From a virus (Duplodnaviria > Heunggongvirae > Uroviricota > Caudoviricetes): a DNA stretch of 24,646 nucleotides. The first letter of the stretch is position 1; the number at the start of each line of letters is the position of its first letter. Below the pieces are notes generated by a model, which was not told where the DNA came from, searched no databases, and saw only the letters and a list, made by a program, of their open reading frames with translations. The translations under genes and the position numbers were made by a program. This document shows positions 1-24,646 of the stretch, one piece after another. The DNA lies in the IMG/VR virus record IMGVR_UViG_2663763286_000010, positions 1-24,646 of that record; one strand, written 5' to 3'.

Positions 1-327
1 TCATTTTTTCCAGAGGCGGTCGAACTCCGCCTTCGCAAAATAAGCGGAAGCCTGGCGAAGGATATCGTTACTGCGGCGCAGTTCACGATTTTCACGTTCC
101 AGCTCTTTCAGACGCTGACGTTCAGCGGTGGTGAGTCCACCATCACCACTCCCGGTATCCCGCTCATGCTGACGAACCCACACACGCAGAGTCTCTGGTG
201 TACAGCCAATCTTTGGGGCAATGGAACAAATTGCCGCCCATTGTGAGTCATATTCGCCCTGACTTTCCAGAACCATACGAACTGCCCGTTGACGGACCTC
301 GGGGGAAAAACGAGTATTTTTAGTCAT
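1..327 (-). CDS. IS3-family transposase OrfA (helix-turn-helix plus leucine-zipper N-terminal protein), 108 aa
   Basis: [60 protein letters not shown]...[36 protein letters not shown] is a typical IS3/IS629-group OrfA; it sits directly inside the terminal repeat. Confidence 0.9.
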
Positions 328-381
328 CCTGTTTACCTCTTTCTCAGGGAGTTTAGTCTCCAGGATTTCCGGGGCGGTTCA
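1..381 (-). mobile_element. Partial IS3-family insertion sequence (IS629-like), terminal inverted repeat ending at 381; the rest of the element lies beyond the window start
   Basis: Reverse complement of 342-381 reads TGAACCGCCCCGGAAATCCTGGAGACTAAACTCCCTGAGAAAGAGG, an IS3-family terminal repeat (TGAACCGCC...) followed inward by orfA. A matching end occurs at 24486. Confidence 0.85.
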
Positions 382-933
382 CTTTCTGAGAATTTCTTCT
401 GTAATTGCGGACTGATCTATCGTGCCAGTAATACCCATTGTCCGGGCCAGGTCGTTTATGGGAATACTGATCATCCCTCTGGAAGTCAGAAACATCTCGC
501 CGAATGTGCCGCCGGTAGTCTCCAATGTGCTTTCTGGTATTAGAACTGTGCCATAGGGATGACGCTCAAGGTCCACCGGTGCATATATCGGATCCCATAA
601 AACAGAAATACCGTTAAATTCGCGGTAAATTGTCTGGTTTATAGGACGTTCAGTTCCCTTAAAGTGGATCTCATCAAGCCGCTGTTGTAACAACATCGGA
701 ACGGAAGATGAGTCCGAGGTTCTGATAGTAAAGAACTGGCCAAGTTCATTTGTCCTGGTCTCCAGATCCTCCTTGCTCATGGAGAAAATAGACTTCCGGT
801 TGGTAATTCGCTCCAACCATGGGTCAACAAAGGTGTCCATCATTGACTGAACCAAATCAGCCAATGATTTATAGAGCAATGACTTTTGCTTAGCTGATGT
901 AAGCCGGTTATTAAACCAGGAACGCTGCATCAC
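379..933 (-). CDS. Phage tail/baseplate morphogenesis protein, probably truncated at its 3' end by the IS insertion (position of P1 gene 16)
   Basis: 184-aa ORF whose stop codon TGA (379-381 on the minus strand) is the first three bases of the IS terminal repeat TGAACC; 4-bp start/stop overlap with the upstream gene (930-933). Product assignment is by position in the P1-like tail block only. Confidence 0.5.
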   Translation of the reverse strand: MMQRSWFNNRLTSAKQKSLLYKSLADLVQSMMDTFVDPWLERITNRKSIFSMSKEDLETRTNELGQFFTIRTSDSSSVPMLLQQRLDEIHFKGTERPINQTIYREFNGISVLWDPIYAPVDLERHPYGTVLIPESTLETTGGTFGEMFLTSRGMISIPINDLARTMGITGTIDQSAITEEILRK

Positions 934-2363
934 TCCTCCTCATACGAAATATTAAAGGTGGAGTTTTCTGTATCCAGATAAACGAAATCGTAAAAGCCGT
1001 TGGACTCATTCCACTCGACAAATTCCAGATAAAAGTCGCGGAAATAACCCAGCGTTTCGATAAACGCCCAAACGTCTTTTTTCTTAATCAGGATGTACTT
1101 CCCGACGCGGTTCGGATCAAAGAAAGTTGAGTCGCGCCCAAATTTTGTTTCCAGTGCCGACTTCAGCTCATCGGTCACATTCTCAATGGTCAGGCTTGCC
1201 GATATCCGTCCGGTGATGGTTATCTTAAATGGTAGTTTTCTGACCTCCTTATACGAGAATTTCTTGTTCAACTCATTCGGCACCTTCTTAAAGGCAGCCA
1301 GGATCATTTCTTCAAGCTCTGACTGGCTTTTATTTGGATGCCACCCTGAAATAAATATCTTATTGATATTCCGAACATTATAAGCACCATCTAATTTCTC
1401 TTGCTGGCCTTCGCCCCATGCCTTTACCCATGACAGTCCCGGGATGTTACGCACCAGAAAATACGTATAGTCCCCGCCCCATACGACCTGATCATCATAG
1501 GCAAGGTAATATTGTGCACGGTTACGTGTGATCTCCGTTGTTTCGGCATCGGTACCTGCGGTTATAGGTGTCGTTGTCTTAACTGAAATCAAATTAGCTA
1601 AATTAGCCGCAGAATCGACAGGCGTCAGGTTTTGGCCAGCAACCAGGGTTATATCGCCGTTGGTGCACCATACCTTAAGCGTAATGGTCGAGCCTTCTGG
1701 CGGTATTTGCCCAATTAGCCCATCACCGAATCGAACCCCCAACTGCTCGGATGGTTTATAAAACTCAACGTAGACCTGGCTTTTACTACCGGCTAACCGG
1801 AACATAGTGCTGGAAGACCACTGCGTGGTCTTACCATCGGTCGTCACGAATACTTCCAGCTTATAGCAGACAGCAGTGAGAGCCTTTGATAACACGACTT
1901 CCAGAAATTCTTTGGCTACCGTAACGGTATATGTCACCTCCTGGATTTCCAACTGTGCCACTTCTACCGTACCGGTGCCGTCAACCAACCTGCATACATC
2001 CATAGTCATGTAAGGGTACTGGTCGTCAGATATTAAAGGCATGTTTTTGGGGATTACCGCTGGGGCATCTTCACTTGTGGCGGTGATCTCAATCATCCCC
2101 GATGACGGTGTTGGCTTGGTACCAACGTAACTATTCGTTTCTGCCGCTGCCAGGATAGAGGAACGCCGCGTCGCGGTCGATATAAAGCCTTCAGCCAGCG
2201 CCGCATCGGCATACTGAAAGCACCTGTAGACAATCTGGGTAATAAACAATGTCAGCATCGAGACAAATTGAGAGCCGACAAACTTCGACCAGAATGAATC
2301 TTTCTCGACAAGCTCTTCGAACTCTGCACGAATACTGTCTTTAGTCGGTGTTGTTTTACTCAT
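930..2363 (-). CDS. Putative baseplate protein (position of P1 BplA)
   Basis: 477-aa ORF in the minus-strand tail block immediately downstream of sit and the 119-aa gene; overlapping stop/start junctions (ATGA at 2360-2363) typical of a phage morphogenesis operon. The name is by synteny with P1, not confirmed. Confidence 0.5.
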   Translation of the reverse strand: MSKTTPTKDSIRAEFEELVEKDSFWSKFVGSQFVSMLTLFITQIVYRCFQYADAALAEGFISTATRRSSILAAAETNSYVGTKPTPSSGMIEITATSEDAPAVIPKNMPLISDDQYPYMTMDVCRLVDGTGTVEVAQLEIQEVTYTVTVAKEFLEVVLSKALTAVCYKLEVFVTTDGKTTQWSSSTMFRLAGSKSQVYVEFYKPSEQLGVRFGDGLIGQIPPEGSTITLKVWCTNGDITLVAGQNLTPVDSAANLANLISVKTTTPITAGTDAETTEITRNRAQYYLAYDDQVVWGGDYTYFLVRNIPGLSWVKAWGEGQQEKLDGAYNVRNINKIFISGWHPNKSQSELEEMILAAFKKVPNELNKKFSYKEVRKLPFKITITGRISASLTIENVTDELKSALETKFGRDSTFFDPNRVGKYILIKKKDVWAFIETLGYFRDFYLEFVEWNESNGFYDFVYLDTENSTFNISYEEE

Positions 2364-2719
2364 AGCACCACGTCCTGTGTGATAGTTATATCCCTGATAC
2401 GAATGGATATTTTCAACTTATCAAAAGCATCTCCCTCGGCTACTGACAAGCCAGAAATCGGTATGTCAGGTAAATCTACCGTCAGTTTTTGCAACAGCAT
2501 TGCCTCAACCGCAATTTGAACATGCGACAAGTTGGTCGGTTCGTGTTTAAACTGCGGTAAAACATTGCCCCATGACGGATCTCCGTATACCTCACCCTGA
2601 TAAGTGTTTAGCCACTCATATAAACGAGCGCCCCAGGCCTCCTCCTGGGACTCATACGTTTTTACGCCGGATAACTCCAGCGTCAGCAAAGGATCAATTT
2701 CGTTATTGTTGGCCATCAA
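2360..2719 (-). CDS. Small tail morphogenesis protein (position of P1 PmgA)
   Basis: 119-aa ORF translationally coupled to sit upstream and the 477-aa gene downstream; no recognisable motif. Confidence 0.45.
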   Translation of the reverse strand: MMANNNEIDPLLTLELSGVKTYESQEEAWGARLYEWLNTYQGEVYGDPSWGNVLPQFKHEPTNLSHVQIAVEAMLLQKLTVDLPDIPISGLSVAEGDAFDKLKISIRIRDITITQDVVL

Positions 2720-5136
2720 TCAACTCTCGCGTAGTCATTCATCAACGGATCATCAATTGACAGTGGCACCGTGCGCATAACGCCCGGTTGAGGCGTGCTG
2801 ACCTTTACGACAGTTCCCTGGCCTTTCGCCGAGTCTTTAGTGTGCTCTTCAATCCTGGCGAGCAATGAGGTCATCTGCGCAAACAGCCGCTTCGTTTCAC
2901 CATCAAGTGAAACGGTATTATCAGCCAACTGCATTGTCGGCTTGGCACCGGAGCCGCCAAGGTCACTAATAACCTGTCCGTCTATCTGCATACGACCGGT
3001 TGGTTGCTGCAAATCGTTGGCGGCAGTCGTCACCAGGGACGTGGAGGCTGGTTCAGGCGCATTATTTTTCCGCATCCCCGGCGAGTTGCGGAGTTTATCG
3101 AATAGTCCATCAATCCCCATTTGTGCGCCGAGTTGGTCAAAGTAACTTGAGTTGCTGGCCACCGGACGCGCCTCTTCAACTGGCATCGGAGTATCAACAT
3201 ACACATTGCCAGCTGCTGTTGCGGTCCCCTTCCCTCGTGCACGTTCTTCGAGCGTTCCCTGAACGACTTCCCGACGCATACCCCGGCCATTCATGAATTT
3301 GTTGACCAGATCGTTAACACCAACAGCATTGCCAATTTTGTCTACCAGACCGCCTTTCTCAAACGGGCTATCACCAGGGGTAAACGCCAGGCCAGTAGAC
3401 TGATCGATAACAGCGTTATCAGGTATCTTTTCGTGAATTGCTGGTGCGCTATGATCTACCTTAGAGCCATAAACGGCACCATTATTGAGCATCTGCTGAT
3501 ACCCTCTGACACGAGTAACATATTCGCCGGTACCGGCGACTACTCTCCCCTTATCAACATGCCCCATACCAGCATGATAGGCAGCTATTGCACGACCCTG
3601 ATCACCGTTATAACGGTTCATCAGCATACTTAGGTATCTGGCGGCACCATCAGCTGCTTTTCGTGTATCCATGGCATCAGCATCGCTGAGTCCAAGATCC
3701 TCCCTTGTACCTTTAGTGATCTGAAAAGCCCCAAGGGCAGATGAAAGTTTGTTCCCGTTTTTGTCTACTGGATTTCCAGTTCTCTGGCCTGCACTAGACT
3801 CTGCGGATGCAACTGCTGACAGAATCCCTTTTTCAAGCCCATACTTACGTTCAAGCTCATCAAAATAATCGGCATTGTCAGAAATCCATTGGTATCCGGC
3901 AGCATTTAATTTTGGCAAAGAAACATCCTTGCCATTGTTAAATCGACGTTTATCTATCTCATATGCACTTAATGCTTCCTCCTTACCTGTAGCAGACTGG
4001 CCCAAGGCAGCATCAATTGTTTGTGCTGCTTTATTTCCTGTTTCTACGGCATTTGCATTGATAATCTGATTAGCAGTTTCTTTAACTGTTTTATTGCTAT
4101 CTTTCGCCATATCCAGGGCCGCATTTATCACGCGGGCAGCAATATTAGTCTGTTTGGCATCGGATTCAGCTTTAGAATCAGATGTCCCCTGCTGGCTATT
4201 AACCGGAGCTTTTAACTCTGGAGTGATTTCTTTCGCATTAGCCTCGCCGATCGGATTGGGTATTTTTGATACAATCATTGCCGCAGGGGTATTTTTAACG
4301 GCATCAACCGCTGCATCTAATGCTTTACCTGGTAAATTTTTAACCCCATCCCAAATATTACTAGCTGCCTCTTTAATGTGTTTCCCTGGGTTCTTAATGA
4401 AATCAATTGCACTATCAATTGCATCACTGAAAACCTGTTTCAGGTTATCGACAGTAAAGAAGTCTTTGATGGCATCCAGCTTTTCAAGCAGCTTATTAGA
4501 TGTATCGCTAAACCATGCTGAAACAGCATCACCAATCTTTGCTGTGTAATCATCGAACTTGGTAGAAATGGTGTCGCCAAGGTTAGAAATATATGTTTCT
4601 AAGTTGGTAATCCCACTATCAATGGCCTGGGCAATACTTTCCGTCGAAAATGATTGCAACATATTGCCGATATCCTCAAATCCAAGTGATTTGAGAACAT
4701 CACCAATAGCACTGCTAATACCAGATACCAGCCCCCCCAAATCAAGAACATTGGCTAACGTATAAGCGGCTTTTTGCTGGAATGATGGATCTTGTCCTGA
4801 TTTAAGCCCAAACGCTCGACGTTGCGCTTCTGTATCATTCCAACCGGTTACCGCATCATAAATACCTCCAGCCACTGTGCCGACTAGGGGAATTGCGCGT
4901 AACGCCCCTTTACCAACTGCCTTTAATCCAAGTTTACCTGCTGCCCGGGCAGCCAAATCTCCGCCTTCATGGGCGAGAGTCTTCTTGCCACCACCGCGTA
5001 GCATTCCTACAAGTTTCTTTGCCCCCAGAGCGCCAAAAGCGAGTGCTCCAGCTTTTTTCAGCATGCCACGCCCCATTAACAACGACGCGACGCCACCGGC
5101 CCCCTTCCCTAACAGGCTAAATAATTTGGACAGCAA
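2716..5136 (-). CDS. sit: Sit-like tail tape-measure / structural injection transglycosylase, C-terminal segment with lytic transglycosylase (SLT) domain; same reading frame as 5284-6081
   Basis: 806-aa ORF with Gly/Ala/Lys-rich N-terminus and an SLT-like segment (ILSAVASAESSAGQ...GAFQITKGTREDLG...AAYHAGMGHV). The listed start at 5136 is TTG; the frame is open up to a TAA at 5284-5286. Confidence 0.85.
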   Translation of the reverse strand: MLSKLFSLLGKGAGGVASLLMGRGMLKKAGALAFGALGAKKLVGMLRGGGKKTLAHEGGDLAARAAGKLGLKAVGKGALRAIPLVGTVAGGIYDAVTGWNDTEAQRRAFGLKSGQDPSFQQKAAYTLANVLDLGGLVSGISSAIGDVLKSLGFEDIGNMLQSFSTESIAQAIDSGITNLETYISNLGDTISTKFDDYTAKIGDAVSAWFSDTSNKLLEKLDAIKDFFTVDNLKQVFSDAIDSAIDFIKNPGKHIKEAASNIWDGVKNLPGKALDAAVDAVKNTPAAMIVSKIPNPIGEANAKEITPELKAPVNSQQGTSDSKAESDAKQTNIAARVINAALDMAKDSNKTVKETANQIINANAVETGNKAAQTIDAALGQSATGKEEALSAYEIDKRRFNNGKDVSLPKLNAAGYQWISDNADYFDELERKYGLEKGILSAVASAESSAGQRTGNPVDKNGNKLSSALGAFQITKGTREDLGLSDADAMDTRKAADGAARYLSMLMNRYNGDQGRAIAAYHAGMGHVDKGRVVAGTGEYVTRVRGYQQMLNNGAVYGSKVDHSAPAIHEKIPDNAVIDQSTGLAFTPGDSPFEKGGLVDKIGNAVGVNDLVNKFMNGRGMRREVVQGTLEERARGKGTATAAGNVYVDTPMPVEEARPVASNSSYFDQLGAQMGIDGLFDKLRNSPGMRKNNAPEPASTSLVTTAANDLQQPTGRMQIDGQVISDLGGSGAKPTMQLADNTVSLDGETKRLFAQMTSLLARIEEHTKDSAKGQGTVVKVSTPQPGVMRTVPLSIDDPLMNDYARVD

Positions 5137-5283
5137 GCCGCCCTTCTTTTTCCCGGTGTTTTTGGCTATCTGATCAAGGGCGCTGAGAATCTTGTCATTG
5201 CCCTCTTTAATTTCGCTGGTCTGATCCTGAAGTTCCTGAACCGTCCGTTTTTGGGTGTTAACCTGAACGACATCGGCACTATT

Positions 5284-6081
5284 TTACGATTTACGCCTAA
5301 AAAAACCTTTTCTACGGCTGTTATCGTCATTGCCACGAATCACATCGGCAATAGACTTTCTGGCACCATTAAGCGATCCACCAACTTCTTTTGATATCCC
5401 GCCAAGCTCCTTCCCTGCGGCCCACAATGGACCAGCAACGGCATAACCTAACGCATCGACGGCACGAGTCTCTGAAGGGTTACCTATGCCTTCAGCTACT
5501 TTTGACAGTTTTTTTAATAAACCTGATTCAGCATTTAGACGCTCATCATCCTCTTTGCGCCTGGCCTTTTCAGCACGGGCATCTTCCGCTGCGGCCTTAC
5601 TCCCTGACTTTCCAATAAAACGACCACGCGCATCGCGTTGGTTTTGGCTTTTTTGCGCACCGCCTTTTTGACCGAACATTTCGCGAGCGTGTTCGGCTGC
5701 TTCGGTCCGTTGCGCCTTTACATCTTCTGTTATAGCCTTCTTGCGTCGTTTTTTACCCTTTCGCGTAGTTGATTTGGCCTGCGGTTCCTGTAGAGCAACA
5801 TCCTCCTGAACTACACGAGAAACGTCCCCTAAATTAAGCCGTTTCATTGCCTCAACAATAGGGTCCACTGATGGCGCATTGGCCACAAAGTCTGGCCGGG
5901 AATTTTCGATTGTGCGATTTAATGCCGACACACTGCGAGAGACAGGATCAACTGTAGCAACTCGCCCCCCTTTCAAATCTTCAACGGCTTCCCGAATACC
6001 TGCAAGCTCTTCCAGCTCTTTTGCGCTGGCGGTTTCAACCGTCCTTATCACATCGTCAATGTTGGCGTTTTTTCTTTCCAT
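5284..6081 (-). CDS. sit: Sit-like protein, N-terminal segment (265 aa), terminated by an in-frame TAA that separates it from the 2716-5136 segment
   Basis: Same frame as 2716-5136 ((5284-2716) is divisible by 3); translating 5137-5283 by hand gives 49 sense codons and no stop. The stop lies next to an A7 run (5299-5305). Confidence 0.7.
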   Translation of the reverse strand: MERKNANIDDVIRTVETASAKELEELAGIREAVEDLKGGRVATVDPVSRSVSALNRTIENSRPDFVANAPSVDPIVEAMKRLNLGDVSRVVQEDVALQEPQAKSTTRKGKKRRKKAITEDVKAQRTEAAEHAREMFGQKGGAQKSQNQRDARGRFIGKSGSKAAAEDARAEKARRKEDDERLNAESGLLKKLSKVAEGIGNPSETRAVDALGYAVAGPLWAAGKELGGISKEVGGSLNGARKSIADVIRGNDDNSRRKGFFRRKS

Positions 6082-6162
6082 GATCTTATCGCCTACCGCT
6101 TCGGTTTAAGTTTTTCTTCCAGTTTCTCCAACAGGAAAAACGCATAGGATTCAGTGAGCCTT

Positions 6163-7044
6163 TCAGCGTCCTGAATCGGTATACCCCCATACAAAACCAG
6201 GTTGGACACTAAGGTCTGATAGCTTTTCAATCCCCACCTGTGGAATGAAGTCGGTAGCCCGAAAGGGCACCCACAGACGGGTATACGCACCCTCTGTGGA
6301 CTCCTTTGTATCCTGGTTTGGGCATTTGTGCGGCGGGAGACGAAGACGCATTTCGCCTTTATCGATGTAGCACGGTAAACCATGTTCGAGCTTTTCATGA
6401 GCCAGCCGGATGTGTGCCGCCAGCTTCATAAATTCAGTATCAATGGCCATCCGTTTAATCGTTTCATAACGACGCTCAGCCTGATCTTCACGAGTACCGC
6501 TAACATCGTTATAAAGCTCACACTGATAAGCGAATTCCCAAAAACGCAAATCAACGATCGCTTCTTTGAATTCCGCGTCGTCTTCAGGTGGCAATGCTGC
6601 ACGGCGCATCTCCAGCATTTCCATTGCCCAACCATCAAGCGGCACGATACGCCATTGATAAGGTACTCCCTCTACAGACACCTCAATATCGTCAATGAAA
6701 GGTTCCACTTCCAGGACCTGGATATCTTCAGCCAGAGCATTCATATCACAATCGTAATAATGCTCTTTACCGCAATGTTTACAGGTGTAGGTGAATGTCT
6801 CGACCGGTGTTTCACGGGAGCCAGTAAATATCCACCATAACGCGGTAATCCGGTCCTGCGCCGTCCATGTCAGGGGATCATATTTCGCGGGTTCAGCCAG
6901 CAAGGCTTTTAAATACGCCGTTGTCTGTTGTTCTTGTTCCTCCGGTGTTATCGAGTTGAAACGCATCGCATCAGCAATATTTGGCTGACGGAACTGGATC
7001 AATTCGGTTGGCCGCGATGGTAGCGGGAAAAGAGGTAAAAGCAT
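6163..7044 (-). CDS. Tail morphogenesis protein (position of P1 PmgB)
   Basis: 293-aa ORF just upstream of sit on the same strand; contains a CxxC pair (CKHCGKEH). Name by synteny only. Confidence 0.45.
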   Translation of the reverse strand: MLLPLFPLPSRPTELIQFRQPNIADAMRFNSITPEEQEQQTTAYLKALLAEPAKYDPLTWTAQDRITALWWIFTGSRETPVETFTYTCKHCGKEHYYDCDMNALAEDIQVLEVEPFIDDIEVSVEGVPYQWRIVPLDGWAMEMLEMRRAALPPEDDAEFKEAIVDLRFWEFAYQCELYNDVSGTREDQAERRYETIKRMAIDTEFMKLAAHIRLAHEKLEHGLPCYIDKGEMRLRLPPHKCPNQDTKESTEGAYTRLWVPFRATDFIPQVGIEKLSDLSVQPGFVWGYTDSGR

Positions 7045-7058
7045 CCTTGCTCCTTAAT

Positions 7059-7670
7059 TCAAAGAGAAAAGCTAAAGCCCAGAAGGGAAGCCAAAGAACT
7101 TGAGGATTGGTTAAACGTGCTGTGCAATGCGAAGGTCATTGGGAATGACTTAAATTCCGTAACCTGATCCCGCGCATAGGTGACATCGCCGGTAGTGACC
7201 GGGAATACCGTCATCTCATTTTCCAGTTTGGTTAAGCCGGAAGACAGCAACCGATAAATACGCACATTGAGCAAATATTTAGATGGTATGTTCCCGGTAC
7301 CGTCAGGATTGATCACCCGACTTTTTGCCGTCTTAAACCAGTCCAAAACGAGGCCATCAACAGTGTCCCTGACCATCATTGTTATCTGCCCAGGCGAACG
7401 CTCCGTTGGCTGAAGGATATTCCCCCCGCCGATTTTAATCGTTTCATATTCGATGCTGTAATCGTGGTAGGTAATGTCTTTGGCAAAGAAGTCTGCCCCC
7501 TCCAGTCCATCAACTTCGACAGAGAACTGCCATCCTTGCGCGAACAGCATTTTGTTCATGATGATTGACGTCAGCTTACCAACTTCCCGCTCACCAACGC
7601 CGGAGCCAAATAATGTCGTCGTTAATGCCGAAGATACATAAGACTTTACTGAAGCAACATTAAGCCCCAT
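7059..7670 (-). CDS. Putative tail tube protein (position of P1 Tub)
   Basis: 203-aa ORF in the tail block, 14 bp after the previous gene; size and position fit a tube-type protein in P1-like phages. Not confirmed by motif. Confidence 0.4.
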   Translation of the reverse strand: MGLNVASVKSYVSSALTTTLFGSGVGEREVGKLTSIIMNKMLFAQGWQFSVEVDGLEGADFFAKDITYHDYSIEYETIKIGGGNILQPTERSPGQITMMVRDTVDGLVLDWFKTAKSRVINPDGTGNIPSKYLLNVRIYRLLSSGLTKLENEMTVFPVTTGDVTYARDQVTEFKSFPMTFALHSTFNQSSSSLASLLGFSFSL

Positions 7671-7680
7671 ATCAGCCCCC

Positions 7681-8288
<608 letters not shown>

Positions 8289-8401
8289 TTGTCATTTGTT
8301 ACCGGTCAGTCTACACATTTCAGATACTACGTTAAAACAACTCAAGTGCTTCAAGTAGCAAATCGCCATCAACACCCAGCCCAAAGATGCGGAGATAAAA
8401 T

Positions 8402-9586
8402 TCAAGCCTTAAGAGGCTTTGTGTATGTTCGAGGAATCCATCCAGTAATAAACTCATCCCCTGATTTAACCTGCACGTAAAGCCATTGACGATCTTTCTT
8501 ATCTAAAATAGCAACAATTGTGTTTTTGCCAATGCATTCAATCACTTCACTATTTAAAGAAGGACTGACATGTAATCTTACGTTATCACCAGTTATAAAC
8601 CTAAAGCCATTGAGATCTTCCCACTTAATTTCTGTATTTTCTTTAATTAATTTTTGTTTTGATATTGGTGCATCCTCATATAGGGATACAGAATATGATT
8701 CTGTCTTGTGTATTTGCGATAAGATTTGTTCTTTTGCATAATCAGCAATAGCGCCAAGCACCACTTCTGTCAAAAGCCACATAATAATAAACTGAAGCGG
8801 GTGAGGGAGCGACTTAAATGAATCAATGAACGTCGAACTGGATTTATTTAATTCTTTGTCTTGAACATCACTTTCGTTGTGAGATGTTTCAATAGCACCT
8901 TCGACATAAGCCTGTGCAATTGATGAAAGACTTTGCTCCATTATTTGATGTAATGAAGCCTTTTGCGCAAGGGTATATTGTTTTAATGATTCTGTTATTT
9001 CATTATTTAAATCTATCTTATGACTTACATTTTGTCGCAATTCATTAAGCATTGCTTGCATGTTATTTAAACCAGCTTGCTTAGTAAGCATCTCGAACTG
9101 GTTTCGTGACGGCATAGCAATTTCTGCCTGTTTCCTTAGCATTTGAATGTATTTATTGGCATCACGCGGGAAAAAAGCCAGAGCCTGTTTCTGTAAAATA
9201 TCAATATGTTTACGATACTCGTTGCCTATTTCTGCCAAATTCGGTCTATGCGAAAACTGTTTTAGAATAGAATCACTAATTAAGGCTTGTGTACTCAACT
9301 TTGCAAGTTGTTCTTGAGCATGGCGCGATATTCTTAACTGTTTTTGCAAGATTGCCATATGTTCTTTATACGATGGAATGATTGCGTTTTTTTGCAGTTC
9401 TGCCAACTGTCTAACCAAATTATTAGAAGCATATTCTGATTTTAATAAATCACTTGCCGATGTATATCCTGGCATTTTGATTTTACTTAAATTATCTCGC
9501 CAAGTAATATTTGAATCTCTATTATAGAGATCGCTTACTGAGCCAAGTGCAAGTTTTTTAATATCCTTCACTTTATTCACCGTCAT
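8402..9586 (-). CDS. Accessory membrane protein: N-terminal coiled-coil region with internal LxKQ repeats, one predicted transmembrane helix, C-terminal SH3b-like domain
   Basis: 394-aa ORF in a markedly AT-rich stretch; repeated motifs (HMAILQKQLRIS, HIDILQKQALAF, YIQMLRKQAEIA, FEMLTKQAGL); hydrophobic segment FIIMWLLTEVVLGAIADYA; C-terminus LNGFRFITGDNVRLHVSPSLNSEVIECIGKNTIVAILDKKDRQWLYVQVKSGDEFITGWIP resembles bacterial SH3 domains. The true start may lie downstream of 9586. Confidence 0.6.
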   Translation of the reverse strand: MTVNKVKDIKKLALGSVSDLYNRDSNITWRDNLSKIKMPGYTSASDLLKSEYASNNLVRQLAELQKNAIIPSYKEHMAILQKQLRISRHAQEQLAKLSTQALISDSILKQFSHRPNLAEIGNEYRKHIDILQKQALAFFPRDANKYIQMLRKQAEIAMPSRNQFEMLTKQAGLNNMQAMLNELRQNVSHKIDLNNEITESLKQYTLAQKASLHQIMEQSLSSIAQAYVEGAIETSHNESDVQDKELNKSSSTFIDSFKSLPHPLQFIIMWLLTEVVLGAIADYAKEQILSQIHKTESYSVSLYEDAPISKQKLIKENTEIKWEDLNGFRFITGDNVRLHVSPSLNSEVIECIGKNTIVAILDKKDRQWLYVQVKSGDEFITGWIPRTYTKPLKA

Positions 9587-10079
9587 CTTGCTTTAAACAC
9601 CCATCATTTTTAGCTTCCTTGTAAATACTTGAAATTCCATCAAGAGAGAATGATGTAATTCGACGCGATCCGATATATACATCCATGTTTTTTTCTTTTG
9701 TGGCTGACGCTGACTTCCAAAAAGAATACCATTCCCTACGATTTGGAGCAGTGTTTTGCGTGCCAATATTAAAGCTATCCGGACCAACAATTAAGGTAAT
9801 TACATCAGCTTTACGAGAAATTGTGTCGCGTGTAGAAAAATCAGCATTCTCTTTCCCTCCGCTTACATACAAATTTCTTCCGGCGATATGATCTTCGGAA
9901 CCTTCCCTTGCTCCAGCATCACAAGAAAAGTTAATTGTATAACCATCGTCATTGGTTGCAGAGATTTCTCTCCATCCTTGCTCACCTCCTACCGTCCAAG
10001 CGGTAGAACCTGCCATTGCTGATAATGGCAGAAAAGAGGATATTAATAAAAAGCTATACAATGACTTATACAATTTCAT
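9573..10079 (-). CDS. Accessory secreted protein with N-terminal signal peptide (168 aa)
   Basis: N-terminus MKLYKSLYSFLLISSFLPLSAMA fits a Sec signal peptide with an AxA cleavage site; overlaps the start of the downstream 394-aa ORF by 14 nt (translational coupling); AT-rich codon usage. Confidence 0.6.
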   Translation of the reverse strand: MKLYKSLYSFLLISSFLPLSAMAGSTAWTVGGEQGWREISATNDDGYTINFSCDAGAREGSEDHIAGRNLYVSGGKENADFSTRDTISRKADVITLIVGPDSFNIGTQNTAPNRREWYSFWKSASATKEKNMDVYIGSRRITSFSLDGISSIYKEAKNDGCLKQDDGE

Positions 10080-10167
10080 ATTTTTATCCTTTTGGTTTTA
10101 GATATTATAGGCATAGTCCATATTGTTAGGTCCACTATGCCCAGAGAATTTAATATTATTCATTAAA

Positions 10168-10659
10168 TTATGGAGCTACACCCGGCCCCCTGGCCCGCTC
10201 TTCAAGCGTACCCTGCACGTTTTGATGGCGCATTCCTGGGGCATTTCTGATTGAGTCAATGCCATTTCTTCCAACATCTTCTTTATTAACGGTATTGCTC
10301 GCCACCAGCACCCCCCAGCTAGGGATAGCAAAATCAGGAGCGGTTTCGCATGCCTTTACCATATAATCGAAAGAGCTTCGATTGATCTCGTTTGCGTCGG
10401 GATTTAATAGGCGAGAATATTGATATTTAGCATTTTCGTTGGTTGCGACTTTATACAGTTCTTGCTGCACCATCGCTTCAGAAAGTTTAAGGCGTTTCAT
10501 ATCTGACAGTAACTTCTTGCGCATGGATTCGTCTTGACTGACAGCAAAGCCGTAAACGTGCCCAAGGTATTTCGTATAATCGGTACAAATCTCCTTTACG
10601 CTTGATGCTGCATTAACAGTCCCAGCCATAAATAATAACGGTAGTAATAGTTTTCTCAT
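10168..10659 (-). CDS. Accessory secreted protein with signal peptide and C-terminal Sit-like motif; candidate superinfection-exclusion protein
   Basis: The ORF track gives 10168-10686, but the likely start is the internal ATG at 10659 (MRKLLLPLLFMAGTVNA signal peptide), preceded by AGGTGAGG. The C-terminus RNAPGMRHQNVQGTLEERARGPG matches Sit GRGMRREVVQGTLEERARGKG and RNSPGMRKNNAPE. Confidence 0.6.
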   Translation of the reverse strand: MRKLLLPLLFMAGTVNAASSVKEICTDYTKYLGHVYGFAVSQDESMRKKLLSDMKRLKLSEAMVQQELYKVATNENAKYQYSRLLNPDANEINRSSFDYMVKACETAPDFAIPSWGVLVASNTVNKEDVGRNGIDSIRNAPGMRHQNVQGTLEERARGPGVAP

Positions 10660-10755
10660 TATAACCTCACCTGCCTTATAACTCATTTAGGGTACATATT
10701 TTCGCCTTTAAAAAAAAGAGGTTATTAGATCTACTTGTGTATTTATTAAGCAAAC

Positions 10756-10772
10756 AATGCTCTAATAAATTT
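10756..10772 (+). promoter_or_regulatory. C1 repressor operator-like site (AATGCTCTAATAAATTT) in the divergent promoter region between the accessory cluster and c4-icd-ant
   Basis: 16 of 17 matches to the asymmetric P1 C1 operator consensus ATTGCTCTAATAAATTT as I recall it; a second copy with similar flanking sequence is at 12426-12442. Confidence 0.65.
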
Positions 10773-10959
10773 GTATTTTTAAGTCACGAATGCTATCTTT
10801 TCGCATCATATTGACCTTTTAATCGTTCAGGCTTATAGTTCCTACGTCGTAGCAAATTCTGCGACCAGGTTTGACAGCCTGAATACTTACGCGGACAACC
10901 GCACATTTCCGATATTGCGGTATTTTTGTGTCCGTAAAACCACGTTACGCCCGAATTAT

Positions 10960-14640: not shown

Positions 14641-14813
14641 CAAAAGGTCAAGGAGAAGCAGGCTATGAAGCAGCAAAGAGCGATATTAATCGCTCTGATC
14701 GTCATCTGTTTAACCGTCATTGTGACGGCACTGGTAACGAAGAAAGACCTCTGCGAGGTACGAATCCGAACCGGCCAGACGGAGGTCACTGTCTTCACAG
14801 CCTACGAATCTGA
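14607..14813 (+). CDS. mok: Mok-like overlapping reading frame (modulator of killing) of the hok locus
   Basis: 68-aa ORF in a different frame that starts 58 nt upstream of hok and overlaps nearly all of it, as in hok/mok/sok loci. Confidence 0.6.
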   Translation: MLSIRRLASYRPKGQGEAGYEAAKSDINRSDRHLFNRHCDGTGNEERPLRGTNPNRPDGGHCLHSLRI

Positions 14814-14820
14814 AAGGTAA
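14665..14820 (+). CDS. hok: Hok/Gef-family type I toxin, 51 aa (MKQQRAILIALIVICLTVIVTALVTKKDLCEVRIRTGQTEVTVFTAYESER)
   Basis: Translated by hand (below the ORF-track size cutoff); near-identical in pattern to E. coli Gef/HokC (MKQHKAMIVALIVICITAVVAALVTRKDLCEVHIRTGQTEVAVFTAYESE). RBS AGGAGA 8 nt upstream; 3' hairpin GGCGGGG-AGAGAT-CCCCGCC at 14828-14847. Confidence 0.9.
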   Translation: MKQQRAILIALIVICLTVIVTALVTKKDLCEVRIRTGQTEVTVFTAYESER

Positions 14821-15457: not shown

Positions 15458-16039
15458 TTACTGGAACGCCCGAACAATATCGGAGCTGTTATATATCGAA
15501 GAACCGGTCAACTGGAGGTTGACGGTGTTTTTCAGGAAATATCCATTACTGTCCCTTGGCGCATCGAGATCAAAACTTAAGTCCTGGATGGCGACATCGG
15601 TGATGTTGATCCGGCGACCAATGTTTAGCGTCACGCGCTCCGGGATTCGACCACCAACATTGGCCGCTTTTAGTTCCGGGCTAATCATGGCTGTCAACGC
15701 GGCGATAGCGCCTGAAACTTCAATGAATGGATTGTTCAAAGCAATGAAAGTTACAGGCAGCGTGAACGTCGGCGGAGTCCCCCCTTCCCAAACCATTAAG
15801 CTATTCCAACGGGCAACCGACGTTGTTTCAGTACCTACTTGCACAAAACCACCCAGAGCACCAGAAACAGATCCCATGGACATACCGGTAAACGGCGCTT
15901 CCCAATTCTGGGCCATGTTCATTGCCGCTCCCTGGCTGATATATCCGGTAACCTGGTACTGAGAGTTCGTTAAAGTAACTTTCAGAAATGGTGATACACC
16001 GTCAGCCTGGCTGTAAACCCCATAAGGTATAGGTGCCAT
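15458..16039 (-). CDS. Virion morphogenesis protein (position of P1 PmgG)
   Basis: 193-aa ORF with SD AAGGAGG upstream; no recognisable motif. Confidence 0.4.
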   Translation of the reverse strand: MAPIPYGVYSQADGVSPFLKVTLTNSQYQVTGYISQGAAMNMAQNWEAPFTGMSMGSVSGALGGFVQVGTETTSVARWNSLMVWEGGTPPTFTLPVTFIALNNPFIEVSGAIAALTAMISPELKAANVGGRIPERVTLNIGRRINITDVAIQDLSFDLDAPRDSNGYFLKNTVNLQLTGSSIYNSSDIVRAFQ

Positions 16040-20481: not shown

Positions 20482-21483
20482 TTAAGGCTTCGGCTTTTTA
20501 TCGAGGCTCTTTCTAAGGATATGCCCAATCATCCTGTCGAGTTCTTCCTGTAGCTCTTTTGAAAGTCGATTAAACTCATAAGAAAATGCACGGCCTTTCA
20601 CGCGCTTCCTTGCAAAGCGATCCTTGTCCTCAAATTTCCATAATTCAGTAACTACGGACTTATCTTTAGAACCTTTATCCGTGAGTAGTGAGGCTTCCTT
20701 TGTTATCAAGCGCAGGATTTTATTTTTAACTTCATCTTCGGCCATTTCTTCAATGGATAAGATGTCGTTTATTTCCGGGGATATGTTTTGAATAAGCTGA
20801 TCAAACTCTAAATTCTTGTTCCCCATTTCGTCGCCAACAGCACAAAGCGTTTTGTAGTCCGAAAAGGTTAATTCCGACTGCACAGGGAAAAGGGCGACTA
20901 ATTCTTCCGGAGCACTCGCTGCCTGGAGAGCACGCGTGACCTTCGCCTGAGACAGCCCTTCTTTGGCTGCAATATCCTTCTGACTCATCCCATCATTTTT
21001 CATTCGCATCAAACGCAGACCTATTTCTCGAATGCTGTGCTGCAATGCTGTCTGAACGTCTTTCGCTAAATTTTGCGCTTCCTGAACGCTGATCTCCTGG
21101 TCCGTGACTAAAACCCGCAACCCTACGTTCTCTAAGATGGCAGAAGCTCGACGCCGGGAACCATCCAAAATTTCAATTTTCCCTGTAGCCCGTCTAACAC
21201 CTATTGCAGGGTAAAATTGCTGATGCTTAATAGTGCTTCGGATACTTTTTAATGATTTTGGCGTAAGAGATGCCTGATCACGCCCGTTGTTATGCTGATC
21301 AACAAAGGTATCGCTTTCTACCTGGTTCGGAGGAATTATCTCCTCGATAAATGTGGCCTGGCGACCAGTTGATAACTTGAATACCTGCTCGACTCGATCG
21401 CCAGAGGCTGAAGAACTATCAAATCCGCTTAATATTGAAGGATTAAGGGTTCGCCCAATTGTTGGTCTGTTTTTCTTTGACAT
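20482..21483 (-). CDS. parB: ParB partition protein (centromere-binding), P1 type, 333 aa
   Basis: ORF MSKKNRPTIGRTLNPSILSGFDSS...; ParB-fold motif GRRRASAILENVGLRVLV; immediately downstream of parA and upstream of parS. Confidence 0.95.
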   Translation of the reverse strand: MSKKNRPTIGRTLNPSILSGFDSSSASGDRVEQVFKLSTGRQATFIEEIIPPNQVESDTFVDQHNNGRDQASLTPKSLKSIRSTIKHQQFYPAIGVRRATGKIEILDGSRRRASAILENVGLRVLVTDQEISVQEAQNLAKDVQTALQHSIREIGLRLMRMKNDGMSQKDIAAKEGLSQAKVTRALQAASAPEELVALFPVQSELTFSDYKTLCAVGDEMGNKNLEFDQLIQNISPEINDILSIEEMAEDEVKNKILRLITKEASLLTDKGSKDKSVVTELWKFEDKDRFARKRVKGRAFSYEFNRLSKELQEELDRMIGHILRKSLDKKPKP

Positions 21484-21499
21484 GGGGGTTTCTTACTCC

Positions 21500-22696
21500 T
21501 CAGTTAGATCTGATAAATTCAATACGGTCAAAAACTGCTTTAGCAAAATCTTCCGCGGCAATTCGCGCGTTCTTCAATGCATCAGCACTACCAACATACG
21601 TTGCCGGGTTAGCTGAAATAACAGTGTCAAAAGACTCGCCGCAACGTTCAAAACCGTCAAGGCGTGGGAGGACGACATCTAGCATATCCCCACCGAACAC
21701 TTCTTTAGCCAGGCTATGGCAATACTTATGATCTGCCTTGTTACTCAACTTGGACATAAAACCAATGTTAGTCGCAAGCTGGCACTCGCAGCCTTCATCC
21801 GAAATGAGTTTCACCAACTCAGGAAGGCGGGCAACGTATTTAAGCGATGAGTGGAAATCGACAGTTGCTGGCGGCAGAGGTGTAAACAGTATATTGGCCG
21901 AGGCCAAAGCATTTTTCAGGAAGGCGTCAAGGTGAGGACCACTATCAACGAGGATAAAGTCATAATCGCTCTTCAGCTTATCAATCACATTTTCTTTCAG
22001 GACAGCATGGATGTTCTGACCCGGTAGATGCTCATTGCACAGCTCTCTCCAATCGGATGCAATAAAGGCATCGTCAATCGACGCAGGCATAACGTCAACC
22101 CCAGGTACAACAGAAGGAACAATAAACTCCTCTAACAGCTCTTCACGGCTTACATTCTGCAACATAGCCTGTGCAGATGTTGCGTTTACGATACCAATAG
22201 AGTGTTTATGGCTTAAAAACATCGTTGCTGAAGATTGCGGATCAAGGTCAATAACCAGAATCCTTAAATCTTCCATCAGAAGATGAGGGTGGGCACGCAT
22301 TGCATGCGCCAGAGAAACCGTCGATACAGTTTTTGACACACCGCCTTTAAGATTGGAGATGAAAATCACATACGCTTCGCTGTAGCGATCCCGGTATTTT
22401 GGCACTCCGCGATGTTCATATATGTCAATGATGTTCTGAATTGACATCGCATATTTCATTGAAGAGCCAGCAGGGCGTTTATCGAAAACATAACCCTTTT
22501 CTTCCATTTCACTTACGGCATAGTCAACGTTCGCTCGAGTCAGTAGAGGCAATTTTGCCAGTGCCGCTTTCGCATAGACCTGGTAAAACTCGTTCGCGTG
22601 TAGCTCATCCTTTTGCAACTGTACTTGTTCAGTCAGAACATTGAGCATTCTGTTTGCTCTTTGAGCAACCTTGTGAAGCTGGCTGGAATCACTCAT
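21500..22696 (-). CDS. parA: ParA partition ATPase (type Ia, with N-terminal DNA-binding extension), P1 type, 398 aa
   Basis: Deviant Walker A motif SNLKGGVSKTVSTVSLA; long N-terminal extension typical of type Ia ParA; operon with parB. Confidence 0.95.
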   Translation of the reverse strand: MSDSSQLHKVAQRANRMLNVLTEQVQLQKDELHANEFYQVYAKAALAKLPLLTRANVDYAVSEMEEKGYVFDKRPAGSSMKYAMSIQNIIDIYEHRGVPKYRDRYSEAYVIFISNLKGGVSKTVSTVSLAHAMRAHPHLLMEDLRILVIDLDPQSSATMFLSHKHSIGIVNATSAQAMLQNVSREELLEEFIVPSVVPGVDVMPASIDDAFIASDWRELCNEHLPGQNIHAVLKENVIDKLKSDYDFILVDSGPHLDAFLKNALASANILFTPLPPATVDFHSSLKYVARLPELVKLISDEGCECQLATNIGFMSKLSNKADHKYCHSLAKEVFGGDMLDVVLPRLDGFERCGESFDTVISANPATYVGSADALKNARIAAEDFAKAVFDRIEFIRSN

Positions 22697-22699
22697 CGA

Positions 22700-22770
22700 A
22701 AGTCATCCTTTATGCTGTATTTTTGAATTTAATTAAAAATGCTGCATAAAATAATAATGTATGCGTAGAT
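22700..22770 (-). promoter_or_regulatory. parAB promoter/operator region (AT-rich palindrome TTTAATTAAA)
   Basis: AT-rich region immediately upstream of the parA start containing a palindromic element; position matches the ParA-autoregulated parOP of P1. Exact -35/-10 not assigned. Confidence 0.45.
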
Positions 22771-22969
22771 GCTTGTACATAGCATTCTCTGCATGTTTAC
22801 TCCTTTGCCAAGTGTGTCACAACATGCTTTGGCATCCTCCACGCATAAAGGACGCGGATTTCTTCTATGTTCAGGTTGTAGCCTGAATCATTTTGGTGAT
22901 TTCCTGCTTCAACGAGCAGCCAGGCTTCACTCTCTATCAACTGGTGAGAACGGCTTGCCCGGCAGCTTC

Positions 22970-23254
22970 GATGTGTGCTGGAGGGAGAATAAAAGTCTAA
23001 GATGTGCGATAGAGGGAAGTCGCATTGAATTATGTGCTGTGGAGGGATCGCTGGTATCAAATATGTGTGCTGGAGGGAAAGACAGAGAATTACATGTGCA
23101 CTGGAGGGAAAAGCGGATGGACAGATGTGTGCTGGAGGGAAAGACTGGGCAAACTGAGGGGCGTCCCCCTCCAGCGCACATCAAAAACAGGAAATTGGAC
23201 AAGCCTTCCCGGCAGCACACATCTTTTTAATGCGGTTTCCCTCCAGCACACACT
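22970..23254. repeat. incA: incA: nine 19-bp RepA-binding iterons (six in one orientation, three inverted) downstream of repA
   Basis: Repeats of GATGTGTGCTGGAGGGAAA-like sequence at about 22970, 23001, 23031, 23063, 23094, 23125 and inverted copies (TTTCCCTCCAGCACACATC-like) at about 23164, 23206, 23237. Confidence 0.9.
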
Positions 23255-24114
23255 TATTCGGGGAGTTTCAGCTTTGGATTGCGAGAATGGACGATTACAA
23301 AACTTTCCCGGCCTTTCTTCTCAATTGAACAGTCGAGATAGCCGATTGTTTTAAGCTGTTCTATCGCTTTCTTAATGATACGGTTTTGCTCGCCAACAGC
23401 TGACTGCAAAGCCAGGCGCTCACGGATTCGCGCGAACGATAGTGGCAACGGGTTCTGCGGAAGGCTTTCGATGAAGGTGTAAATGGCTTGTGCAGCTTCT
23501 TTCTTGGGAAGGGCACGCAAGGCGTGGTGTTGCAACAGAACGCGATAATCAAGCTGGAACAGCTCCCACAGCTTCGAATCAGCCTCCAGCTCTATCAGAT
23601 CAAGGTCAGCATCAAAACGCCCGACCTTCAGCAGACCAGTCTGATAGCCGCCTTTAGCATCTTTTCCGCGCTTAAAAGCGATACCCTTGTTACGCAAGCG
23701 TCCAAGTGATTCATGAATGGTTAAACGCAGTTTCGCATCCAGACGTTTTGAGGGGAAACCACAGGCTTTAGCGAATTCCTGAAACGATAACTGGATGGTG
23801 TTTGAGGACAAGCCGTATTTGCTGAACGCGTAGATGACACCGATCCACGTTTTGAAATCAGTATCCATATCGAGTCGAGGACCGGTGATTTTAATATCAT
23901 CGTAACCCTCGGCTTTAGCTATCTCCAGCTGGGAAAACGCTTTGGTAGCATCAATCTCTTTACTTTCTCCTTTGCTCTTTGATGGCTTCGGCACGAATAC
24001 CCCCAAGCGCATCAACGCTACAGGCTGCACAGTGTTGTTTGAATTAACTGTTAGTTCTTTTGCCTTACTTTCAATGTCTGCGTAAAGAATATCGGAGATA
24101 AATGATTGATTCAT
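23254..24114 (-). CDS. repA: RepA plasmid replication initiator (iteron-binding), P1 type, 286 aa
   Basis: ORF MNQSFISDILYADIESKAKELTVNSNN... flanked by incC iterons upstream and incA iterons downstream, exactly the P1 R-replicon layout. Confidence 0.95.
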   Translation of the reverse strand: MNQSFISDILYADIESKAKELTVNSNNTVQPVALMRLGVFVPKPSKSKGESKEIDATKAFSQLEIAKAEGYDDIKITGPRLDMDTDFKTWIGVIYAFSKYGLSSNTIQLSFQEFAKACGFPSKRLDAKLRLTIHESLGRLRNKGIAFKRGKDAKGGYQTGLLKVGRFDADLDLIELEADSKLWELFQLDYRVLLQHHALRALPKKEAAQAIYTFIESLPQNPLPLSFARIRERLALQSAVGEQNRIIKKAIEQLKTIGYLDCSIEKKGRESFVIVHSRNPKLKLPE

Positions 24115-24123
24115 ATTACTTTT

Positions 24124-24395
24124 TCCGAATTATGTGGATAGTTTTTATAAGCGGTGATAACTACCCAGGCTTTCCCGTCAGCACACATCCTATATCCCGC
24201 CAGCACACATTAGCAACCCGTCAGCACACATTTTTTTCCCTCCAGCGCACATCATTTTCCCTCCAGCACACATCGCGAAAGGCTTCTAAGCCAGACGGGG
24301 CGCGGCCTACGACGATCAGGGATCTATATGGATCTAATTGGGATCTGTATGGACCTGATTATTGGATCTATCCAGTGGATAATGTGGATAAGTGA
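24124..24395. promoter_or_regulatory. oriR plasmid origin of replication: DnaA boxes at both ends (TGTGGATAG at 24133-24141 (8/9 match); GTGGATAAT/TGTGGATAA at 24375-24391), five GATC Dam sites in 7-bp repeats (about 24314-24370), and the incC iterons
   Basis: Five GATC sites in GGATCTA/GGATCTG heptamers; DnaA box consensus TTATCCACA present as reverse complement; arrangement matches the P1 oriR. Confidence 0.85.
24170..24274. repeat. incC: incC: five 19-bp iterons overlapping the repA promoter (part of oriR)
   Basis: Five tandem copies of TTTCCC(G/T)(T/C)CAGCACACAT-like sequence at about 24170, 24192, 24214, 24235, 24256. Confidence 0.9.
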
Positions 24396-24485: not shown

Positions 24486-24646
24486 TGAACCGCCCCGGGT
24501 TTCCTGGAGAGTATTTTATCTGTGAACTCAGGCTGCCAGATCATTATTTCCGATGGAAGCATAATAAGCTTTTTCTGCTTCTGCCGGAGGAATATGGCCC
24601 AGCCTTTCCAGCAATCGTCGATTGTTATACCAGTCCACCCACGTTA
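24486..24646 (-). mobile_element. Partial IS3-family insertion sequence (IS629-like), terminal inverted repeat starting at 24486 and extending beyond the window end; same orientation as the copy at 1-381
   Basis: TGAACCGCCCCGGGTTTCCTGGAGAGTATTTTATCTGTGAACTC at 24486 onward is the opposite-end repeat to the one at 342-381 (imperfect inverted repeats). Confidence 0.85.
24528..24646 (-). CDS. IS3-family transposase OrfB, C-terminal 38 codons only (gene continues beyond the window)
   Basis: Minus-strand translation ...TWVDWYNNRRLLERLGHIPPAEAEKAYYASIGNNDLAA* ends 41 bp inside the terminal repeat, as expected for an IS3-family orfB. Confidence 0.7.
   Translation of the reverse strand, partial: TWVDWYNNRRLLERLGHIPPAEAEKAYYASIGNNDLAA

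Follow-up and report, generated by a model that had tools for sequence, protein, structure and literature searches.

A premature ochre codon in sit, the tail tape-measure gene of a P1-like phage-plasmid

Does a single in-frame stop codon within a tail gene of a P1-like element mark a genuine inactivation, an error in the record, or a gene that is expressed in spite of the stop? The question is raised by a 24,646-nt stretch of DNA (hereafter the window, meaning the whole stretch analyzed), which corresponds to the entire contig JXWD01000056.1 of GCA_000948825.1, a draft assembly made up of short contigs. On its minus strand, a check of the ORFs recovered one of 265 codons, which is opened by an ATG at 6081, spans 6081 to 5287 and is closed by a TAA at 5286-5284 (5284-6081 with its stop), and another of 806 codons, which begins with a TTG at 5136 and ends at 2716. 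The two share a frame with each other and with the 49 sense codons that lie stranded between the stop and the next in-frame start (5283-5137, minus strand). Read through the TAA, this frame comprises 1121 sense codons, with that one codon, at position 266, as its sole interruption and with the 856 codons 3' of it still open. The layout confirms the earlier note, in which two co-framed ORFs were described as being split by one TAA and a 49-codon linker, and its estimate of about 1120 aa for the joined protein, close to the P1 protein Sit, agrees with the 1121 codons found here as against the 1140 aa of P1 Sit.

Identity and architecture of the interrupted gene

In a megablast search of phage records, 21 Punavirus (P1-like) and related records were recovered, and in each of them the match corresponded to the sit gene. 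Sit is the tape-measure protein of the P1 virion (PMC9024508), and its gene in P1 (NC_005856) is 3423 nt long, encoding 1140 aa, and is situated between pmgB and pmgA-bplA; the order pmgB-sit-pmgA-bplA-16 is the same in the window. Both ORFs and the 49-codon linker are collinear, over the full length, with the single uninterrupted Sit proteins of P1, P7, MH422554 and the plasmid pUSDA5905_1, and hence chance does not explain their shared frame. In protein alignments, the translation of the linker is identical to the corresponding stretch of the MH422554 Sit. Likewise, in matches to the 1130-position profile phrog_2533, the 265-aa ORF accounts for positions 1-268 and the 806-codon ORF for positions 319-1130. 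The latter ORF (2716-5136, minus strand) contains the rest of the helical ruler, an SLT lytic transglycosylase domain and the C-terminal region. The SLT domain (Pfam PF01464; 3550-3867, minus strand) occupies residues 424-529 of the 806-aa ORF and was detected with E = 1.3e-14 and a score of 54.2 bits (cut-off, 21.3); the alignment further shows that its motifs AESS (with the catalytic Glu-Ser), GAFQ and AYHAG are kept. Collinear homology, synteny and the SLT domain thus show that the locus had been rightly recognized as a P1-family sit gene coding for a tape measure with a transglycosylase. Still, where the family has one uninterrupted ORF of about 1100-1250 codons, the gene in the window (2716-6081, minus strand) has a TAA at codon 266, and we therefore classify it as a sit pseudogene. 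With normal translation, the 265-aa N-terminal fragment is the only product expected from it, and the 806-codon ORF is probably either untranslated or weakly re-initiated.

The closest parallels define what is shared and what is peculiar to the window. It resembles the Sit proteins of P1 (YP_006507.1, P1_gp037) and P7 (AAQ07509.1) in its collinearity over the full length, in its neighbors (pmgB upstream, pmgA and bplA downstream), in a DNA identity of 96-98% outside an SLT cassette, and in the succession of a long helical ruler and an SLT domain. It departs from them in the TAA at the equivalent of Gln269, in having one RAE unit fewer and in a diverged SLT module. The latter is a cassette common to pUSDA5905_1 and the proteins P0005, P0007 and P0014. 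Even closer are the E. coli O55:H7 plasmid pUSDA5905_1 itself (NZ_CP039843.1; Sit WP_000440156.1), which is 98.0% identical to the window over 98% of the latter's length, and the viral contig IMGVR_UViG_2529292729_000026 (L042), whose sit differs at only 16 aligned positions. Both have the SLT cassette and the gene order of the window; however, unlike the window, they possess an intact sit ORF of 1124 aa with CAA at the codon in question, an intact gene 16 and no insertion sequence (IS) at either of the junctions described below.

A side observation concerns the cassette itself. The divergence extends around the SLT domain over approximately 3200-3950 of the window (minus strand; sit codons ~710-960), where dS relative to P1 and P7 is about 0.5-0.65, as opposed to 0.04-0.08 in the N-terminal part of the gene, and the same cassette is identical or nearly so in pUSDA5905_1 and several IMG/VR contigs. 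On the strength of these comparisons, a module seems to have been exchanged within the tape-measure gene, with the catalytic motifs retained.

The interrupting codon in homologues and the age of the lesion

The codon equivalent to the premature ochre codon (TAA, 5284-5286, minus strand) is CAA, encoding glutamine, in P1, P7, MH422554 and pUSDA5905_1, and the window differs from these by a single change at position 5286 (C>T on the coding strand, G>A on the plus strand), which corresponds to Gln269 of P1 Sit. An alignment of 53 sit sequences generalizes this observation: CAA is present in all 52 homologues, and the T is private to the window. A single base thus separates the codon of the window from the sense codon invariably found in the relatives, and the flanks are otherwise conserved. 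A 57-mer centered on 5286 found no identical copy in either the 423 matching PLSDB plasmid records or the 435 matching records from 5,426 complete E. coli genomes, the nearest matches in both sets being one mismatch off. When the first base of the codon was left free in a pattern search, 76 IMG/VR loci and two genome loci were retrieved, and 78 of 78 read TCG CAA. Further, among approximately 15 billion proteins, the exact 265-aa product comes only from this sample, that is, from the NCBI contig and its Logan re-assembly.

Since the stop is absent from all the homologues, there is neither a conserved recoding signal nor a natural split at this codon. The eventuality that intact relatives might likewise encode two proteins divided at this point, which could have overturned the reading as a lesion, is met by an alignment with CAA throughout and with none split. 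Programmed readthrough or recoding was considered as a candidate and rejected on the same grounds, given a stop that is not conserved, CAA in 52/52 aligned and 78/78 pattern-matched sequences, and no identical 57-mer in 858 records. We also considered a natural division of sit in the phages vB_EcoM-813R1 (ON470617.2; L007) and vB_EcoM-673R5 (ON470615.2; L008), in which the gene is annotated as 4-5 small ORFs; the breaks are situated elsewhere and have the look of multiple frameshifts, so that these records, which probably represent error-rich assemblies or decayed elements, lend no support to a split here.

Among the 48 IMG/VR and genome homologues fetched with both gene ends in the locus, 45 are intact, at 3303-3750 nt, and three (L026, L066 and L079) are frameshifted, their length being no multiple of three. 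In two other loci (L045 and L051), the sit reading frame closes early, and the unrelated Logan protein P0003 is also frameshifted. The five loci may represent further independent inactivations of sit or sequencing errors; in any case, broken sit genes occur beyond this element. As an observation in its own right, the 45 intact homologues range from 1100 to 1249 aa, a marked variation in size for a protein considered to determine how long the tail is.

In comparison with the 52 homologues, the sit gene of the window displays only three private changes, namely, the C>T at 5286, a synonymous G at 4732 (GGG versus GGA), and a 9-bp in-frame deletion at 5572-5573 (minus strand), absent from 52/52 homologues, by which one of two tandem CGTGCTGAA units and thereby three residues (RAE) were lost. 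Apart from the stop and the deletion, no private amino-acid change was found in this comparison. The deletion is typical of a slippage event; separately, the short form with one RAE unit is also seen in the frameshifted protein P0003, which suggests that such slippage is recurrent. Pairwise dN/dS values in four segments of sit are about 0.05-0.57, staying under 1 before and after the stop alike, which indicates that the whole gene was under purifying selection until very recently; the N-terminal 265 codons, with values of 0.11-0.27 in the relatives, are accordingly needed. Taken together, the CAA in all homologues, the base-identical re-assembly, the few private changes and the dN/dS values below 1 on either side of the stop argue that the lesion is recent and not programmed, and that an assembly error is unlikely.

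Error, bypass or loss of function

The most direct challenge to the stop is that it arose in sequencing or assembly, the true base being C and sit being intact. Such an error would be in keeping with the draft, short-contig character of the assembly behind JXWD01000056.1, with a difference amounting to just one base, and with the presence among deposited P1-like records of sit genes fragmented in an error-like manner. However, the Logan assembly of run SRR1783861 contains a 10,501-nt contig that is base-identical to window positions 354-10854, the TAA included, with the proviso that it and the NCBI assembly may share reads and are then independent possibly in software only. Moreover, 22 of the 25 genes annotated on pUSDA5905_1 match the window in tblastn searches over their full length and without interruption, the other three being sit, gene 16 and a gene located past the IS junction on the right. 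The lack of any frameshift or stop in these 22 genes, in comparison with a relative of 98% identity, points to a high consensus quality, and base 5286 lies outside homopolymers and repeats. The option of a sequencing error, which had been entertained earlier, is weakened by the identical Logan contig and the frameshift-free genes, and we consider a consensus error, or a mixed population at this base, improbable.

If the stop is real, it might still be bypassed, with an ochre-suppressor tRNA of the host or natural readthrough furnishing enough full-length Sit to make this a conditional allele. The 856 codons past the stop are open and have no private amino-acid change, as such a bypass would lead one to expect, but the same is equally expected of a very young pseudogene. 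Against it stand the absence of the stop from all relatives, and hence of any conserved recoding site, and the absence of a tRNA gene, as a candidate suppressor, from the 24,646-nt window. Both release factors recognize UAA, and among the stop codons of E. coli it is the one least prone to leak. Further, gene 16 is broken by an IS, so that a return of Sit by itself would leave the phage defective. Readthrough or suppression, which the earlier note had also listed, thus finds no support in an unconserved UAA without an accompanying tRNA gene, and we regard it as very improbable. Alternatively, sit could now be expressed in two pieces, with re-initiation at the TTG at 5136 or later yielding an 806-aa SLT fragment that functions by itself or in concert with the 265-aa one, perhaps resulting in shorter tails or a domesticated muralytic function. 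The first in-frame start does lie 50 codons past the stop, and the Shine-Dalgarno pairing ahead of this TTG (-5.2 kcal/mol) is near that of the native start (-5.7), though pairing before the in-frame starts past the stop is modest overall. However, TTG makes a poor start codon, re-initiation would have to bridge a long gap of 147 nt, and no promoter-like site was found on the coding strand of sit. Additionally, 315 N-terminal residues that purifying selection maintains in the relatives would be missing from the product, and none of the homologues is naturally split at this codon. For these reasons, we give expression in two pieces almost no credence.

In contrast to these readings, we consider it highly probable that a recent spontaneous C>T change turned codon 266 of sit from CAA (Gln) into the ochre codon TAA, rendering the gene a pseudogene and the element a defective P1-like phage-plasmid. 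Of the options raised in the earlier note, the best supported is therefore the first, according to which a defective phage has lost an essential tail gene to a nonsense codon, as the CAA of the homologues indicates. Under this reading, translation of sit would halt after 265 residues, providing neither a full-length ruler nor the transglycosylase. The approximately 2.5 kb left untranslated may additionally affect pmgA, bplA and 16, which lie downstream, through Rho-dependent polarity. Given the structural roles and essentiality of sit and gene 16, tails would be predicted to fail in assembly and induction to yield no infectious particles. CRISPRi knock-down of sit ends plaque formation, and both sit and gene 16 score as essential in P1, in a screen that is open to polar effects as a cause of such scores (PMC10695390).

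A second lesion and an intact replicon

The sit stop is accompanied by another lesion close by, in a baseplate gene. The contig begins with the left end of an IS3-family element (1-381, minus strand), comprising its terminal repeat, IRL (TGAACCGCCCCGG, 381-369), and orfA, whose product has an HTH_Tnp_1 domain (PF01527). Judged by the terminal repeat, the OrfA domain and its near-identity (99-100%) to annotated transposase copies, the element at the contig ends is of the IS629/IS1203 type. It cuts gene 16 (379-933, minus strand) at residue 183 of 278: tblastn covers residues 1-183, and the remaining fragment retains PF26903 (Phage_P1_Gp16) and positions 1-180 of the 275 in phrog_2015. The truncated gene takes its stop codon, a terminal TGA, from the repeat at the end of the inserted IS. 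The structure of the P1 virion shows gp16 as a wedge protein of the baseplate (PMC12810830), and the insertion would be predicted to block tail assembly independently of the stop in sit.

The contig closes, just past oriR, with the other terminus of this IS type (IRR, read inward; 24486-24646, plus strand). The two IS ends are in the same orientation, and the contig terminates within the IS on both sides. Neither the junction of gene 16 with the IS nor the right-hand IS junction near oriR was found in the PLSDB plasmids and 5,426 complete E. coli genomes. If each end stems from an IS copy of its own, the element would be a P1-like one of full size (about 95 kb); if both stem from a single copy, that copy would close a mini-plasmid of about 25.4 kb. 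From what is known of P1, the kilA/repL operon, which is intact here, would be harmful without the C1 repressor, and this would argue for the full-size element. That one IS closes a circle of about 25.4 kb, making the element a deletion-derived mini-P1, or else that the split sit functions through re-initiation or ochre suppression, is improbable. On the one-IS reading, the mini-P1 would retain nothing but repA/parAB, the immunity I region, kilA-repL and a set of tail genes no longer of use. If either were true, the element would offer a snapshot of a phage-plasmid becoming a plasmid, with no new mechanism involved.

The functions of plasmid maintenance are, by comparison with relatives, intact. 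The module in 20482-24275 (minus strand) consists of parB, parA, the incA iterons, repA and the oriR/incC iterons, with the iteron families flanking repA at 22953-23255 and 24174-24275; relative to pUSDA5905_1, RepA and ParA are 100% and ParB 99.7% identical. Because repA, parA, parB and the iterons are intact, it is plausible that the element is kept as a plasmid. With the phage route presumably blocked by the sit and gene 16 lesions, it would then persist solely by vertical inheritance, which remains available because the repA/parAB replicon is intact.

Some further features of the window are recorded here for their own sake. A 51-codon match (14665-14817, plus strand), 94% identical to the type I toxin HokD gene of pUSDA5905_1, is located between the repL/rlf region and the tail genes. 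Two genes on the minus strand show only about 90% amino-acid identity to their pUSDA5905_1 counterparts, versus 97-100% for their neighbors: one at 8402-9586 encodes an SH3-domain protein (394 aa here versus 389 aa), and the other, at 15458-16039, is a 193-codon ORF here as against an annotated product of 139 aa. From this pattern of identity, we interpret the two genes as local mosaic patches. Finally, window position 10854, where the Logan contig of SRR1783861 stops, falls in seemingly unique P1 sequence close to c4/immunity I; the genome may contain this stretch twice, with the other copy in another prophage, for example.

Among known systems, laboratory amber and ochre mutants of P1 tail genes carry single-base nonsense lesions in essential morphogenetic genes. 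The window has a lesion of the same kind, but one of natural origin in a wild isolate, with no sign of a suppressor host or of deliberate selection. The decay of P1-like phage-plasmids into plain plasmids is also documented (Pfeifer and Rocha 2024, PMC10879196). The defective P1-like plasmids in that study keep the P1-type replicon and partition functions, as in the present case, and have lost tail functions, as is predicted here; however, they are defined by the absence of whole genes, whereas here the damage consists of one nonsense codon and one IS, with the other genes of the window intact (PMC10879196). Thus, we see the element as an ordinary, recently broken P1-like prophage at an early stage of decay, and the passage of phage-plasmids to plasmids has been reported before in terms of gene content (PMC10879196).

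Beyond annotation, the weight of the finding is small. As for annotation itself, sit on this contig should be marked as a pseudogene and gene 16 as disrupted by an IS, and the element should be recorded as a P1-like phage-plasmid that is defective and not inducible. In terms of biology, it is a small but clean example of a phage lifestyle being lost and a plasmid lifestyle kept, in which a nonsense point mutation and an IS insertion precede any loss of genes.
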